NCBI GenBank assembly: GCA_031263105.1
Contig: JAISGJ010000136.1
Span: forward strand, 1-43,128
Source: Coriobacteriales bacterium
GTDB taxonomy: Bacteria; Actinomycetota; Coriobacteriia; Coriobacteriales; UBA8131
Direction of reading: 5' to 3'
Length of the DNA: 43,128 nucleotides
Shown here one piece after another: positions 3,001 to 15,000 of this stretch. A program made the position numbers. How positions within the stretch are numbered: position 1 is the stretch's first letter; each line of letters starts with the position of its first letter.

Positions 3001-6000
3001 GCGCTTGGCGCTTGGCGAGTCCGCCTGCAGCTGGTCGAGAACAGACTGCAGGAAATGGGGACCCGCAGTCACATCGACAACAGCGAACCGCTTTGAGTCC
3101 AGCGTGTCGCGCACATCGGTAAGGAGCGCGGTCTTGCCCGATCCCCTGATTCCTGAAACCACGGTGACCCGGTTGGGGTCGTTGGGGTTGTCCAAGCCAC
3201 AGAGGAAGTCGCGAACGATGTAGTCACGACCGATAAAGTACTCAGGGCGTTTGCCGAACTGTGGATGAAACGGATTTGCTGCCAGCGCCTCCATGCTGTC
3301 GCCTGCCTTTCACGACCTCGATACTTCAGGTAGTTTTCATCGATAGTTTATCGAAGTTTCGTTATTCTAGCAAATTTTCGGCATCGGTAACGATGATGTA
3401 TCACCTGACACGCGAAAGCTGATCGTCTTCTAGTCCAGCTGCTGGCGGCGGACGAGGTCGGCGAAGAGGCCGCCTTGGGCCACGAGATCGTCGTAGCTGC
3501 CGTCCTCGGCGATGGCACCGTCCTCCAGCACGACGATGCGGTCGGCCTCCTTGATGGTGGAGAGGCGGTGGGCCACGATGATGCGGGTGCTCCTGAGCGC
3601 CGCGAGGGACTCGGAGACCTGCCGCTGCGTGATGTTGTCGAGTGCGCTCGTCGCCTCGTCGAACATGAGGATGCTCGGCTTCGACGCTATCGCGCGCGCT
3701 ATCATGATGCGCTGCTTCTGGCCGCCGGAAAGCCCGCCGGAGCCTTCGCTCACCATGGTCCGCATCCCCATGGGCATGGCGCGGATGTCGGCGGCGACCC
3801 CCGCCATCTCGGCGGCCTCCCAGGCCTCCTTGAGCGTGATCTGCGGCGCGGCGATGCCGATGTTGGAGAAGATGTCGCCCTGGAACAGGTCGCCGGTCTG
3901 CAGGACGACGCCGATGTTGCCCCTGAGAGACTTCAGGTCGAGCTTGCCCATGTCCTTCTCGTCATAGTATATCGCGCCTGCCTGGGGCGCCTCGAAGCCG
4001 AGGAGCAGCCGCAGCAGGGTGGACTTCCCGCAGCCGGTCTTGCCCACCAGGGCAAGGTACTCGCCCCGCCTGATGGTCAGATCCAGATTGTCGAGGACAG
4101 GCGGCGCGTCCTTCTCGTAGGCGAAGGAGACCCCCTCGATACGAATGGAGCCGCCCAGGGAGCGCAGTATCTCCTTGCTCTCCCCCAGCTCGGACGGCTC
4201 TTCGAGCAGGGGCTTTGCAATCTCAAGGATAGGCTTGATGTTCGCCATGGTGCCCACGATGCCGACGATCGGGATGAGTGCGCCGGAGACCTGCCCGAAG
4301 GCCGTCATGAAGGCGAAGTACTGCGGGACGTCCACGCCAGAGGTCGCCGCGACGAAATAGATGAACAGGAGACCTGCAATCCCCACCACCGCGTTCAGGG
4401 CCGGCATCAGCTTCAGCAGGACAGGCGGGTTGTAGTCGCAGCGCGCCTGCTCCTTGTAGATGTCCGCCCATTTTGCGAAGGCCCGCTTCTCGGCGCCGGA
4501 AAGCCGTAGCTTTTGGATGCCGGAGAACAGCGAGAACACGAGTGCGCTCAAGCGATTGGCAAGCGGCAGCCTCCTGCGCATGAGCGCCTGCTCCAGGCGC
4601 ACGCCCAAAAGCCCCACCGCGACCTGCAAGGCTATGGCGACGATGGCGGGCAGCGCAAGGCTTGGCGCTATGGAGAAGATCTGCGCCACATAGACCACGG
4701 AGAATATCGAGGCGAACGACGTCGTGAAGGCGACGGAGACGACGAGGGACGCGACCGAGCTCAGGTTGTTCATCCGGTTCGACAGGTCGCCTGCGCTGAA
4801 GCCCTTGAAGAAGACCGGCGGCATGTTGATGAGCTTGCCGAAGACGGCGCTCTCCATGACTATCTGCAGCTTGGTGGCGATGCGCGTCTCCGCGAGGCTT
4901 TTCAGGATGCCGAAGAGGATCGTCGAGAGCGAGACCCCCACCAGCAAAGCGGCAATCGCCCCCAGCTCCGAGAGCCGCCCCGAGGGGATCACGTGCGAGA
5001 AGATGAACTCGTTCGCCCAGGGCAGGGCAAGCCCCACGAGCGCCACGGCGACGGTCGCGAGCAGCACCAGGGAGAAGTCAGCCTTCTCGGTGCGCTCGAA
5101 CAGGAACCTGACAATGCCGCGCAAGTCGGTCGCGTCGTTGGGGAGCGGCCGGTAGAAGCAGATCGCGTCCCCTTCGAGCGCCTCTGCGGCCCGGGCGTTC
5201 ATCCTCACCTTCTGTCGACGCCCGTAATCGAAGAAGCGGTAGCCGCTCAACGTGGGGACGAGCGCCACATAGCCTCCCGCCTTGGTCTTGCACAGCATCG
5301 CCTCACTCGCGTTCTTCCACCACGCGCCCTCAAGCGACACATGGCGCCACATGACGCCGGACGGCCTGAGCAGGCGCTCGAGCCAGTCGTCGCCCTCCGT
5401 GTCGAAGTCGTCGCCCGCGTCGCGGGCGATGCCGTAGAAGCGGCATATCTCATCGACCGCGCTGCGCGTCCTTGTCTGCTCGCTCGACACGTACTCGGAG
5501 GCGACCTTCTCCCCCATGAGGACCGCCGCGAGGTCAAGGGTGGCATTGGTGAGCTGCGCGTCGTCGAAGGCAACCCGGTCGCGGATCTGTTTTTCCTGAA
5601 ATTGCACCATGTGGGTCACTCCATCGAGATCAGCTTCGTGTAGAGCCCTCCGGCGGCAAAGAGCTCCGCGTGTGTGCCGCGTTCCTGCACGCGGCCCTGG
5701 TCCAACACGATGATCTCGTCGGCGTCGCGTATCGTCGAGAGGCGGTGCGCCACGATCACGCAGGTGATGCCGCGCTCCCGTATGGAGCGGATGACCTCGT
5801 ATTCCGTCTTCGCGTCCAAGGCGCTCGTCGCCTCGTCCAAGATGAGCAGGGTGGGGTCCTGGGCCAGCGCGCACGCGATCTCTATCCTTTGGCGCTGCCC
5901 GCCCGAGAAGTTCTTGCCGCCCTCGGAGACCGTGTCGTTGTAGCCCCGTGGGCGCCGCACGATCTCCTCGTGTATCGCGGCGTCACGCGCCGCGAGGATG

Positions 6001-12000: not shown

Positions 12001-15000
12001 GGGTCGGCTCTATGTCGGGGTGGGCCGCCATCCAGGCATCGGTGCGATCGACGGTTGCCTGGCCGGCCAGGCCGAAGGGGTAGAAGTTCTGAACGAGCGT
12101 GGTGGAGATCGCGTTGCTGTTGTTCTCGATGACGGACTGCAGGCGCTCGAAGTAGACCTCGTCCAAGCCCGCATACACCTCGCTGGCATCGGGGTAACGC
12201 ACATACGGGTTGTAGAAGTACCAGGTCGCGTCCGCCTCTGCAAAGCTCATCTCCTTGCCGGAGAAGTAGGTATCGAGCAGGGAGCGCCTGACCTCGGTGG
12301 TGGGGAAGCGCAGCCTGGAGCGCTCGCTGAGAGTCACGATCTCGGGCTCGTCCGCGCCCAGCTCCGCAATCAGCGCGTCGATGTCCTCCGCACCGGCCTG
12401 GCCCGCCGCAATGAGCGTGTTGAGCGCACCGAAGCGGATGTAGGGCGCGCGCCACACGGTGGTGCCAGCCATGACCTCGCGCAGGAACGCGATGCTCTTC
12501 TCGGAATCGGAACGGAGCGCACATACCAGGACGGGCATGATGGTGTCCTCGCCCCATGCGTCGAAGACCCCCGCATTCAAGGCGTCCACTATCGCATCGG
12601 CGACGGCGCCGGTGCTGCGCCCGAGGTTCTCGTCGGCCGTCAGCGAGTACAGGTCTGCGCCCATGGCCGCACCGTCGAGCGACTTGTCGCTGAGCACTGC
12701 GATCTCGTAAGGGGAGCGCGTGGCCGCAAGGACGTCTGCAATGACGCCAAGGGTGCGCGAGGCAGGGTATTTGAGGTCGCGCGTCATCTGCATCAGGTCA
12801 AAGACGGCGAGGGTCCTTACGAAGGGATCGTCCAGCGCCCCGATGTGCTGCTCGAGCGTCGCAAGGCTCACCTCGTCGAAGACGACCTTGGAGTAGTCCG
12901 CGCCCGCATGGTCTATAAGGATGAGGTCGGGGCGCTCGGCGCCGGCTACGGCGGGCACCTCGGTCTCGTCACCCGAGACGAGCACCTCGTGCGCGTCACG
13001 CAGCACGAGCCGCTCGGCACCGCCCTCGCCCACCAGGTCGTAGAAGCCTATCTCCAGCTTGTGCGTGCGCAAAAGCGGCGTGTTGGCGCCGCCCGTGTAC
13101 TCCTCTGCGGCCTGGGTCACCACAAGCCGCTCGATGCGGCCCTGCTCGTCCGTCTCCACCACGGGGGCGAGCGTGTTGACGCCGGTGGCGGTGAGCCACT
13201 CCTCGGACCAGCCCGCCATGTCTATGTCCGCATAGGGCTGGAAGGCGGCGATGAAGTCGCTGAGCCTGGCGTTGCCCTCCGCATGCTGTGCGAAGTAGTC
13301 GTGGATGCCGCTCCTGAAGCTCTCCTCGCCCACGAGCGCATGGAGCTGCGTGAGCGCCATGCTCCCCTTGGCATAGGTGATGTTGTCCACGTTGGCATCC
13401 GACTGCTCGATGGTGATGTCCGAGTCGGACGCGATGGCATGGGTCGCGGGGCCCTGGTCCTGGTCAACGGCGGCAAGCCGCGTCAGGTCCTGCCCGTAGA
13501 TGAGGTAGTCGTCGTTGCCCGTAAGGGCCGCGACGGCCCTAAGCGAGATGAACTCGGCAAAGGACTCGTTGAGCCACAGGTCGTTCCACCATTCCATGGT
13601 CACAAGGTTGCCGAACCACTGGTGCGCAAGTTCGTGCAGGATGGTGATGTCGTTATACATGCGCTCGAAGAGCGAGTCGGCATACACCTCATGGAGCGTG
13701 ACGGCACCGACGTTCTCCATGCCGCCCCAGAGGAAGTTCGGCACGTAGATCTGGTCGTACTTCTCGTAGGGGAACTCCGTGCCGAACGCCTGCTCGTAGT
13801 ACGCGATCCCGGCCTTGGTGAGGTCGAACCACGCGTCGAAGTCCGCCCCCTCGGCCACGGAGGGGCGCGCATAGAAGCCGAGGGGCACCTGGCGACCGTC
13901 CGAGGCCTCGTAGGTGGACGTGACCTGGACGTAGTCGCCCGCTATGAGGGAGCTGAGGTAGGTGCTCATGAGCGGCGAGGGCGCGAACTCCCAGTGCCTC
14001 GTGTCGCCGTTCTCCGTGGGCTCACCGACCGGATCGGTGGCGGTGACGACCGTCCACTGCTTCGGCGCGTCCACGCTGAGGGTGAAGTGCGCCTTGAGGT
14101 TGGGCTGGTCGAAGCACGCGAAGACGCTCTGGGCGTAGGCAGACTCGTGCTGCGTGTAGATGAAGGTCTGGCCCTCGTCCTCGGGAGGGGCCTCGCGCAT
14201 GATGCCGACGCCGGATACGGAGTAGCCGTTCGTGGCGGTGAGGCGCAGCGTATTGGCGGCCTCAAGGCCCGTGAGCAGGATGCGCCCGTGCTCCTTGTCG
14301 TAGACCGCTGCGGGGTCGAGTTCCGTGCCGTTGAGCTCGATGCTCCCGATGTCCGCAAGGCGCGCGTCGATGAAGCTCTCCGCGCCCGGCTCGGCGCTGA
14401 AGCTCACCTCCTCGGTGAGGGCATAGGTCTCGCTCGTGCCATCCAGCTCGAACGCGAGCGCGTAGTCGATGTCCGAGAGCGCGGATGCCCGCGCGAGCAT
14501 CTCCTCATAGGTGACGTAGGCCGTCTGCACGCCCTCGGACGTGCCTGTCGCGTCCGACGTCGCCGCAGGGGCTGTGTCCGCAGGGGCACCGCCCGCAGGG
14601 GCGGCGTCCTGTGCGCCCGGTTGCCCGCTCGAACACGCCGTCGCACCGACGGTGCCGAGCGCCAGCAGCAGCGCCAGCAGCAGCGCCAGCAGTTTACGCG
14701 AGAATGTCGTAGTCGTCATGTGTCCTCACCCTCCATACGCGTGCCCATGGCGTCCCGTCGCCAAGACCTCGGATTACATGGTATACGATTCGTCGCCCCT
14801 TGTCATCGTCAGCCGGGACGGGACGTCCGACGCAGCGAGGTGTCCGTTACAGATCACACCCCCACTGTCATCCCGAGCCTGCCGAGGGATCCTCGACCGC
14901 GCAAGCGGTCGACCGCAGTCAAAGGGTCCTGCGACCTGCGGTCGGCTGCTTCGCGTCCCGCGGGCCTGTCGGACTGTTCTCCGGGCGCTCGAACCCAAGG

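Follow-up and report, generated by a model that had tools for sequence, protein, structure and literature searches.

A putative operon for secreted, probably thioether-bridged peptides with tandem C-x-C-x3-G-x-G units in a Coriobacteriales bacterium

Gene organization of the cluster

The window, i.e., the whole stretch of DNA analyzed, comprises 43,128 nucleotides of contig JAISGJ010000136.1 from a Coriobacteriales bacterium (assembly GCA_031263105.1), and its coordinates are those of the contig. The cluster extends from 3430 to 14719 and all its genes are on the minus strand (Table 1). The M1 peptidase gene is putatively the first of an operon: it lies only 19 nt from the gene of the Cys-less peptide, whose stop overlaps the start of the radical-SAM gene. 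A promoter-like sequence, which is a consensus match only, is found upstream of the M1 gene (14806-14778), and a ribosome binding site (AAGGAGG) upstream of the 122-aa precursor gene. The longest open reading frame of the second ABC gene spans 3430-5874, with the ATG at 5610 as its likely true start. The survey's finding had described a RiPP cluster in which double-glycine precursors are combined with a single radical-SAM/SPASM maturase and a C39 ABC exporter of NHLP type, accompanied by an M1 peptidase, a second ABC protein and a membrane protein; genes, leaders and domain matches agree with this description. Its domain calls were also reproduced (Radical_SAM, SPASM, Peptidase_C39, Peptidase_M1, and TIGR03796 with 896 bits and an E value of 1.3e-269).

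Table 1. Features of the cluster, in order of transcription.
Feature	Position	Strand	Evidence
M1 zinc peptidase, aminopeptidase N type, 933 aa	11918..14719	-	Pfam, TIGR02412, motifs
Cys-less peptide, 63 aa	11707..11898	-	leader alignment, TIGR01847
Radical-SAM/SPASM peptide maturase, 500 aa	10208..11710	-	Pfam, AF2 fold
Precursor, 122 aa, three C-x-C-x3-G-x-G units and two single Cys	9843..10211	-	sequence read
Precursor, 121 aa, ATG at 9729, four C-x-C-x3-G-x-G units and one single Cys (C-x3-G)	9364..9729	-	sequence read
Precursor, 89 aa, three C-x-C-x3-G-x-G units and a C-terminal Cys	8934..9203	-	sequence read
Precursor, 96 aa, TTG start behind AAAGGAGG, three C-x-C-x3-G-x-G units	8439..8729	-	sequence read
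Single-pass membrane protein, 181 aa, N-terminus HlyD-like (NHLP)	7858..8403	-	TIGR03794 partial
ABC exporter (ABC1), N-terminal C39 double-glycine peptidase, NHLP ABC1 type, 737 aa	5616..7829	-	TIGR03796, Pfam
Second ABC permease/ATPase (ABC2) without peptidase domain, NHLP ABC2 type, 726 aa	3430..5610	-	TIGR03797, Pfam

Precursor peptides and repeat unit

Alignment of the five peptides shows the single double-glycine leader that had been claimed for them: 35 residues ending in QVAGG, with 22 invariant columns, encoded by a direct repeat of 122 nt present in five copies. In the 122-aa precursor the leader precedes a core of 87 residues, and the Cys-bearing cores of the cluster range between 54 and 87 residues. 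The 63-aa peptide pairs the same leader with a core of 28 residues that lacks Cys, and it exceeds the cut-off of the bacteriocin signal TIGR01847 (17.3 bits against 15.7). With the Nif11 leader model (TIGR03798, cut-off 32.3 bits) the leaders of the cluster score 16-17 bits. Assignment to the GG-Bacteroidales radical-SAM system was rejected, as TIGR04149 (cut-off 25 bits) gives the precursors 18.9 and 22.9 bits and no match to the maturase model TIGR04148 was found at the locus in the source genome.

The four Cys-bearing cores carry 3, 3, 4, and 3 CxC units, in agreement with the number of repeats reported earlier. The unit had been written as C-x-C-x(2-4)-G-x-G followed by D or E; the Cys/Gly repeat holds, with a spacing fixed at x3 (C-x-C-x3-G-x-G fits 13 of 13 units), whereas the trailing D/E is weakly conserved. 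When the cores were shuffled with the Cys positions fixed, none of 20000 shuffles reached 13 fitting units and the maximum was six.

Radical-SAM/SPASM maturase

The maturase shows Radical_SAM (3.9e-19) and SPASM domains in Pfam, and about 90 residues at its N-terminus are predicted to form a peptide-binding, RRE-like domain. All 33 family members compared preserve the CxxxCxxC motif (C103, C107, C110) and the seven-Cys SPASM pattern (C343-x12-G356-x4-C361 ... C408-x2-C411-x5-C417-x3-C421 ... C441), and judged by its sequence the enzyme is intact. It thus has the CxxxCxxC motif and the SPASM/twitch auxiliary-cluster domain of sactipeptide-class enzymes. The AF2 model (pLDDT 89.1, pTM 0.86) is closest in fold to SkfB (Z 27.4, rmsd 5.0, 348 aligned residues spanning 9-435 of the model, N-terminal domain included), with anSME statistically tied (Z 26.8), followed by SuiB (Z 26.1); the ranthisynthase CteB (Z 25.1) and the epimerase EpeE (Z about 19) also match. 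Despite its like fold, CteB gave no sequence match at E<=0.001. SkfB (E 6.5e-13) and then PqqE were again the best solved sequence relatives, as in the survey.

Membership in the StsB family (NF045574) was rejected, with 89.4 bits against a cut-off of 625 and a match limited to residues 89-263; the relatives at loci L012, L067 and L072 reach 52-65 bits, and identity of the maturase to an StsB-like enzyme is 23%. Membership in the PapB family (NF047865) was likewise rejected (46.5 bits, cut-off 340). Six catalytic-site proximity positions were placed via alignment to the StsB-like enzyme of L081 (279 bits) and the landmarks given in the relevant passages of PMC10288494, and by this placement they are Y111, T145, Y173, S199, M362, and A363. 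Three of the six are identical to StsB: positions 1, 2, and 4 (Y111, T145, S199) are equivalent to Y113, T147, and S199 of StsB and to aligned Y, T, and S of SkfB. At the other three positions StsB has I, K, and L where the maturase has Y173, M362, and A363.

Complex prediction of the maturase with the 96-aa precursor gave a score of 0.67 (best control 0.00); among solved complexes 116 of 157 attain this mark, among mismatched pairs 2 of 215. Agreement of contacts between runs is 7% or more, and the partner has a pLDDT of 38 or more. Leader residues 1-33 are predicted to contact maturase residues 16-53, 86, 91, and 339-348. Modeling of the core is poor (pLDDT 38-47), and the three runs include one with a score of 0.09; furthermore, since structures of SuiB and ChlB with their leaders already exist, the favorable score may mirror likeness to them.

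Export proteins and M1 peptidase

ABC1 lies above the TIGR03796 cut-off of 853 bits, as expected of an NHLP ABC1 protein, and shows Peptidase_C39 (1.2e-32), ABC_membrane and ABC_tran domains. ABC2, with ABC_membrane and ABC_tran domains, falls just below the TIGR03797 cut-off (685 against 709 bits). The protein described earlier only as a membrane protein (g02196) is indeed one; it has no Pfam match, and its N-terminus matches the NHLP HlyD-type secretion protein TIGR03794 (E 5e-11) at profile positions 1-61 of 421, with 42 bits against a cut-off of 156. Neither ABC2 nor the HlyD-like protein therefore reaches the cut-off of its NHLP model, and the latter is not matched at full length.

The M1 peptidase carries the signal of a lipoprotein, with lipobox ...GATAC, and is extended at the N-terminus by about 68 residues; its Pfam domains are Peptidase_M1 (1.9e-46), Peptidase_M1_N, and ERAP1_C. 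Its TIGR02412 score (567 bits) is below the cut-off of 591, and the GxMEN and HExxH motifs of M1 aminopeptidases are present (GGMEN at residue 332, HELAH at 362). No M1 peptidase gene was found beside the maturase in 134 related loci or in 30 related genomes, so it is no feature of the family. As a lipoprotein, the enzyme is predicted to act outside the cell.

Distribution of the family and conservation of Cys and Gly

A search led by the maturase retrieved 1318 or more relatives (E<=1e-60, 90% clusters), which bear only generic source names, and 134 loci encoding such relatives were fetched, with many gut, rumen and termite-gut anaerobes among the hosts. CxC-x3-GxG peptides are encoded in 43 loci, C-x3-GxG in 26, and C-x3-G in 17, so that C-x3-G peptides of any of these types accompany the maturase in 86 of the 134. 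The remaining loci show no precursor by the leader pattern used (31), other Cys peptides (13), or only Cys-less peptides (4). In the CxC-x3-GxG loci most precursors have three units, and this type is present in 21 of 26 loci with at least 49% identity. Outside the source genome there are 65 unique CxC-x3-GxG cores, and the survey's view that the precursors are nearly confined to that genome does not hold. Its statement that they belong to no named family stands in so far as only generic names were found, the family has no characterized member, the maturase has no NCBIfam equivalog, and neither an NCBIfam model nor a publication describing the family was found within the literature searchable; however, the motif has precedent in StsA and BlaA. 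The cluster is thus one member of a large family of enzymes and peptides in gut anaerobes that carries no name, and whose probable products are chains of small hairpins closed by sulfur bridges.

Nif11 leaders (TIGR03798) were detected in 9 of 11 precursors of relatives (38.8-51.5 bits), and one more scored 30.5 bits; two short-leader precursors of L012 gave no match to this model. Among 145 CxC units, Gly is found at position 7 in 90% and at position 9 in 92%, while no single acidic residue exceeds 23% at any position: at positions 10-13 the highest values are E 23% and D 13% at 10, D 20% at 11, and D 23% and E 17% at 13. Downstream of any Cys, the frequency of Gly is raised at +4 (0.46, z 15.7), +6 (0.59, z 22.6), and +8 (0.43, z 12.1), against 0.21 in shuffled sequences. 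C-x3-G is present in 93 of 127 Cys-bearing cores and is kept by relatives with a single Cys, which fits a pair of donor and acceptor. The peptides therefore combine a leader with conserved Cys donors and candidate acceptors at fixed spacing, as in sactipeptide precursors. The Cys-less cores share no common motif across loci.

Proposed pathway and alternative readings

Of the possible products a Cys cross-link is the likeliest, in agreement with the secreted, Cys-cross-linked peptide proposed by the survey. We suggest that M1 peptidase, Cys-less peptide, maturase, four precursors, short HlyD-like protein, ABC1 and ABC2 form a single operon for secreted thioether-bridged peptides, each with 3-4 tandem bicyclic Cys-S-C-alpha-Gly mini-hairpins; the gene set and tight spacing, read directly from the sequence, count for it. 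Taken as a whole, single operon included, we give this reading a probability of roughly 55%. The N-terminal domain of the maturase would bind the common leader, as the complex model predicts. In C1-x-C3-x3-G7-x-G9, the enzyme would abstract the C-alpha hydrogen of both Gly and form sactionine bonds to both Cys sulfurs, most likely nested (C3-G7 and C1-G9), by analogy and from the conservation described above; each core would become a string of 3-4 small bicyclic hairpins with 6 to 8 or more thioethers. The StsA and BlaA precedent points to Gly C-alpha rather than D/E as acceptor. Going by their families, the C39 domain of ABC1 would then cleave behind the GG, and the product would leave the cell through ABC1/ABC2 together with the short HlyD-like protein. 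Once outside, it may lose the two residues in front of the first bridged Cys to the membrane-anchored M1 aminopeptidase, which is the weakest step. The product is assumed to be antimicrobial or a signal. Against this reading stand the loop of three residues, where StsA has four, the three proximity positions that differ from StsB, the Gly peak at +6, the loci in which precursors of this type were not found and the lack of the M1 gene in the related loci; furthermore, given the low identity and score with respect to StsB, the common motif may be convergence or mean something else.

It is unlikely that the CxC/GxG pattern serves another radical-SAM product, namely anSME-like Cys oxidation, epimerization, a new Cys-Gly heterocycle, a C-C bond or crossed sactionines. 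The fold matches to anSME and EpeE and a family without characterized members agree with such a reaction, and Gly is most enriched at +6, which crossed connectivity (C1-G7, C3-G9) fits as well as the nested one; however, the mirror-symmetric C-x-C ... G-x-G is the pattern of both known Cys-Gly sactipeptide hairpins, as far as these are covered in PMC10288494, and the C-x3-G of single-Cys relatives fits a donor-acceptor pair. Ranthipeptide-type bonds, from Cys to a side-chain carbon (beta or gamma) of Asp, Glu, Thr or Asn after the Gly-rich stretch in the manner of PapB, CteB and QhpD, with Gly only for flexibility, seem less probable still. Acidic residues and Thr are frequent at unit positions 10-13, as the trailing D/E of the survey had indicated, and CteB is near in fold, but no acceptor-like residue keeps a fixed distance as Gly7 and Gly9 do, the PapB score is far below its cut-off, and the first two proximity positions hold the Y and T of StsB and SkfB instead of the F and F given for CteB in PMC10288494.

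CxC repeats recall metal-binding peptides. Export of essentially unmodified CxC/Gly-rich peptides (metal-binding, disulfide or class II bacteriocins), with the maturase acting elsewhere, e.g., on the Cys-less peptide whose gene overlaps its own (the closest relative, L001, likewise has a Cys-less peptide with a GG leader directly upstream of the maturase), is highly improbable given the association of C-x3-G peptides with the maturase, the lack of a common motif in Cys-less cores, the likeness of all five leaders and a modeled contact that is made with the leader.

Comparison with known systems

The closest known chemistry would be, by analogy, the nested Cys-to-Gly sactionine hairpin of StsA and BlaA. 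According to the sections of PMC10288494 on hairpin sactipeptides, which cite He et al. 2022, StsB of Streptomyces sparsogenes makes nested sactionines Cys2-Gly15, Cys4-Gly13, and Cys6-Gly11 on the CxCxCx4GxGxG of StsA, and BlaB makes Cys13-Gly22 and Cys15-Gly20 on BlaA. On this account the systems share a CxC(xC) donor block, a short loop, a GxG(xG) acceptor block and a radical-SAM/SPASM maturase with, by the placement above, the same Y, T, and S at three of the six proximity positions. The cluster differs in its shorter loop, in the three- or fourfold tandem repetition of the unit along cores of 54-87 residues, and in a maturase of different lineage with a fused N-terminal domain, where the StsB system has the discrete PqqD-like StsC. 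Furthermore, leaders in the family are of double-glycine or Nif11 type, export is of NHLP type and hosts are gut anaerobes.

Ruminococcin C, a double-hairpin sactipeptide, and the type 2 sactipeptides of streptosactin/GggB and QmpB (PMC9389541) resemble the cluster in gut or commensal hosts, several sactionine rings per peptide and multiple precursor genes, and provide precedent for small rings and Gly acceptors. Their precursors have no sequence relation to those of the cluster, and the tandem nested two-bridge units predicted here differ both from a lone nested hairpin and from single rings in alternation.

NHLP/Nif11 systems such as that of LahT in Lachnospiraceae C6A11, as outlined in PMC6363468, likewise have ABC1 and ABC2 proteins; precursors of the relatives bear true Nif11 leaders, and one related locus (L035) is from the C6A11 genome. 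By comparison, the leader of the cluster is short and below the Nif11 cut-off, and its HlyD-like protein is matched only over the first 61 profile positions. Finally, AplP-type M1 peptidases trim leaders of class III/IV lanthipeptides as aminopeptidases, in the account of PMC10885120, and the M1 zinc peptidase of this RiPP cluster has the same intact motifs; however, it is a lipoprotein found beside this cluster only, and the leader would already be removable at GG by the C39 peptidase.

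Organization of the cluster and its surroundings

The cluster lies between positions 3430 and 14719 (numbered alike in window and contig) on the minus strand and comprises eleven genes arranged head to tail, ten of which are itemised in the table. Intergenic distances range between -4 and 204 nt, and an AAGGAGG-type ribosome-binding site is found 5' of every precursor gene. On the far side, rplU, rpmA, obg, proB and proA are encoded on the opposite strand, and two AAA ATPases adjoin the near side; since the cluster is flanked in this way, the boundaries proposed in the survey's finding were borne out.

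Coordinates of the cluster genes and of other features in the contig
Feature	Position	Strand	Basis
M1 aminopeptidase	11918-14719	-	gene list of cluster
Cys-less peptide, 63 aa	11707-11898	-	gene list of cluster
Radical-SAM/SPASM enzyme (maturase), 500 aa	10208-11710	-	Pfam Radical_SAM and SPASM
Cys-bearing precursor	9843-10211	-	gene list of cluster
Cys-bearing precursor	9364-9729	-	gene list of cluster
Cys-bearing precursor	8934-9203	-	gene list of cluster
Cys-bearing precursor	8439-8729	-	gene list of cluster
Membrane protein, 181 aa	7858-8403	-	gene list of cluster
C39-peptidase ABC exporter (ABC1)	5616-7829	-	gene list of cluster
Second ABC protein (ABC2)	3430-5610	-	if the start is the ATG just after the ABC1 stop
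AAA_14/DUF4143 ATPase, near window end	745-2037	-	
AAA_14/DUF4143 ATPase, near window end	41236-42444	+	
AAA_16-type ATPase, adjoining the cluster	2206-3294		
Ribosomal protein L21	15176-15940	+	
Second bacteriocin-type locus	33904-39660	+	
ORF with internal start, second locus	36444-36830	+	
Small membrane protein, second locus	37013-37327		
Small membrane protein, second locus	37372-37737		
HlyD-family protein, second locus	38536-39660		

The genome, which carries a single copy of the enzyme, is a draft assembly in 250 contigs with 86% completeness. The window's DNA is strongly represented in one run from a termite gut metagenome, possibly the sample of origin, and no RNA runs were found among the sequencing runs listed as carrying it. 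No Rfam family reached gathering scores anywhere in the window, and terminator and promoter scans gave consensus matches only, on which no weight was placed. Ribosomal protein L21 is extended at its C-terminus by about 150 residues, which weakly match the histone H1-like HC2 family. The second bacteriocin-type locus encodes a C39-peptidase ABC exporter of 776 aa and an ORF that, read from an internal start, begins with a short GG leader (...TYVEGG) and continues into a hydrophobic core rich in Gly and Ala; a pair of small membrane proteins and then the HlyD-family protein follow. The middle of the locus is a low-GC stretch (0.49 vs about 0.64).

Precursor peptides and the repeated unit

All five peptides have in common a 35-residue leader ending in QVAGG, with 22 invariant columns, whose coding DNA forms a five-copy direct repeat. 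The four Cys-bearing cores have 54-87 residues, 22-30% Gly and 3, 3, 4 and 3 CxC units, and the fifth core, that of the 63-aa peptide, has no Cys. C-x-C-x3-G-x-G is matched exactly by all 13 CxC units of the window, a number reached in none of 20000 shuffles with Cys positions fixed (maximum 6). Of the three extra single Cys located away from a C-terminus, two are likewise followed by Gly at +4.

Across 145 CxC units, Gly occupies position 7, numbered from the first Cys, in 90% and position 9 in 92%. Gly following any Cys is likewise enriched at +4, +6 and +8 in 127 unique Cys cores (z of 15.7, 22.6 and 12.1 versus shuffles).

The maturase and its predicted contact with the leader

The maturase reached no NCBIfam equivalog: the best matches, ScmE (97 bits) and StsB (89 bits), are both far below their cut-offs. 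None of 33 aligned family members departs from the CxxxCxxC triad or from the full seven-Cys SPASM pattern. Its AlphaFold model is confident (pLDDT 89.1, pTM 0.86) and the closest solved folds are peptide maturases: SkfB (Z 27.4), anSME (26.8), SuiB (26.1), ChlB (25.6) and CteB (25.1). The structural alignments with SkfB and SuiB begin at the N-terminal domain of the maturase.

Complex prediction placed leader residues 1-33 on this N-terminal domain and near C343, with a score of 0.67 against 0.00 for the best control and with one run at 0.09; contact agreement among runs was at least 7% and partner pLDDT at least 38. Of 157 solved complexes, 116 attain the mark used for this score, as do 2 of 215 mismatched pairs. 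Because leader complexes of related enzymes have been solved, the predicted complex shows likeness to solved complexes rather than proof.

Size and distribution of the maturase family

A full scan of 1.84 billion representatives (50% identity) found 381 proteins at E≤1e-30; E-values of 6.7e-63 or lower apply to each of the best 150, most of which match over their full length. A word-indexed search, with 8000 candidates scored, gave at least 1318 clusters (90% identity) at E≤1e-60, and all source names of these relatives are generic. The closest relative in the metagenome scan has 56% identity, and nearer ones, of 77-88%, were found by the word-indexed search on contigs of 1.9-9 kb.

We fetched 134 loci encoding a relative of the enzyme, 76 from species genomes and 58 from metagenomes. 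The family as a whole extends over Clostridia, Negativicutes, Synergistota, Spirochaetota and Coriobacteriia living in rumen, gut and termite gut; record titles, mostly of rumen and gut, name Lachnospiraceae, Oscillospiraceae, Christensenellaceae, Selenomonadaceae, Anaerovibrio, Synergistaceae, Treponema, Atopobiaceae, Collinsella, Eggerthellaceae and others.

C-x3-G peptides and the maturase travel together across these loci. Peptides with the GG-leader pattern, within 5 kb and on the enzyme's strand, were of the CxC-x3-GxG type in 43 of the 134 loci, C-x3-GxG in 26, C-x3-G in 17, other Cys peptides in 13 and Cys-less only in four; the GG-leader pattern found no precursor in the remaining 31, many of which have short flanks or different leader types. 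Where the enzyme is at least 49% identical to that of the window, the CxC type is present in 21 of 26 loci. The loci outside the window contribute 65 unique CxC-x3-GxG cores, 43 of them with exactly three strict units, and a Marvinbryantia MAG (L012:8417-12301) shows 12 tandem precursor genes after the maturase, each with three units.

GG-leader peptides that lack C-x3-G or any Cys are found in many clusters of the family (L001, L002, L004, L023-L029, L031, L039 and others). Cys-less cores account for 33 of 160 unique cores, a few being C-termini of ABC proteins caught by the leader pattern, and no motif common to them was found. In an Olsenella MAG (L047:7001-8395), the maturase homologue has one in-frame stop inside the matched range, and a C-x3-G peptide is still encoded downstream (9746-9904).

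Export and the M1 peptidase

ABC1 scores over the NHLP ABC1 cut-off (TIGR03796) and ABC2 just below its own (TIGR03797); the match of the 181-aa membrane protein to the NHLP HlyD model (TIGR03794) is confined to the model's first 61 positions. Within the flanks as fetched, 20 of the 134 loci have pairs resembling ABC1 and ABC2 alongside the enzyme.

The M1 peptidase bears a lipoprotein signal, its GGMEN and HELAH motifs are intact, and its gene lies 19 nt from the next. No M1 gene was found in the 134 related loci, where the relatives from metagenomes reach up to 56% identity, nor in 30 genomes of the same family or order at E≤1e-50. In species genomes its closest relatives are PepN proteins of Streptomyces, 33-43% identical to it, with the match beginning at about residue 69. 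Because of this absence and these nearest relatives, the M1 peptidase looks like an accessory gene acquired at the window's locus. It could plausibly trim the two residues before the first Cys, a role modelled on the AplP-type M1 peptidases (PMC10885120).

Proposed cross-links and comparison with known sactipeptides

StsB joins Cys2-Gly15, Cys4-Gly13 and Cys6-Gly11 on CxCxCx4GxGxG, and BlaB joins Cys13-Gly22 and Cys15-Gly20 (PMC10288494). A short loop between a Cys block and a Gly block, the mirror pattern seen here, is the signature of these two characterised sactipeptides. By analogy with both patterns, we propose that every unit would bear two nested sactionines, C3-G7 and C1-G9, which would turn the peptides into chains of three or four bicyclic mini-hairpins. 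Streptosactin and QmpB offer precedents for small sactionine rings and for unnested arrangements (PMC9389541). The units may instead carry ranthionine bonds to the trailing D/E/T, crossed bridges or other chemistry; trailing acidic residues reach at most 23% at any single position of the 145 units.

Membership of the maturase in the StsB family (NF045574) was ruled out by 23% identity to the StsB-like enzyme and 89 bits against a cut-off of 625. Compared with StsB, proximity positions 1, 2 and 4 are the same in the maturase and match the aligned SkfB residues too, whereas the other three differ; by this analogy it would work like StsB and is not a StsB. None of 401 genomes of the phylum scored above the cut-off of the StsB model, and the best hit (279 bits) was used as a stand-in. 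This radical-SAM enzyme belongs to a StsB-like cluster of the same phylum (L081, G202:C288), with a CxCxCxC-x4-G7 precursor, a PqqD-like small protein and a ferredoxin-like ORF alongside; this cluster may represent a StsA variant with four bridges.

Neither the maturase family nor the cores are covered by any NCBIfam or Pfam model, and the GG-Bacteroidales system (TIGR04148/TIGR04149) is not matched at the cluster. The literature search found no description of the enzyme family or of CxC-x3-GxG repeats; He et al. 2022 (Angew. Chem.) and the PDF supplement of PMC10288494 might bear on this. Six motif strings of the family and five genus or family names are all absent from the PMC10288494 spreadsheet (2023, 3,421 predicted sacti- and ranthipeptide precursors).

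The maturase family is large, uncharacterised and without a curated model, and its substrate signature C-x3-G, with the three-fold CxC-x3-GxG subtype, gives a concrete, testable cross-link prediction. If true, sactipeptide topologies would extend to tandem mini-hairpin arrays holding at least six thioethers, annotation pipelines would have a rule by which to recognise a common type of gut RiPP, and a new set of compact, protease-resistant scaffolds would be at hand. We put at roughly one in five the chance that the most far-reaching reading holds: a very large, unnamed RiPP class of gut anaerobes in which one enzyme writes three or four tandem bicyclic C-x-C-x3-G-x-G knots on long cores, with a Cys-Gly chemistry or topology that may differ from any described sactipeptide (e.g., crossed bridges or a new Cys-Gly ring), and to which the window's genome adds an M1 aminopeptidase acting outside the cell and a co-exported peptide without Cys. 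The finding is sactipeptide-like, set apart from known sactipeptides by a new maturase lineage, the x3 loop and the tandem repetition and, in the window's genome, by the M1 peptidase and the Cys-less companion peptide.
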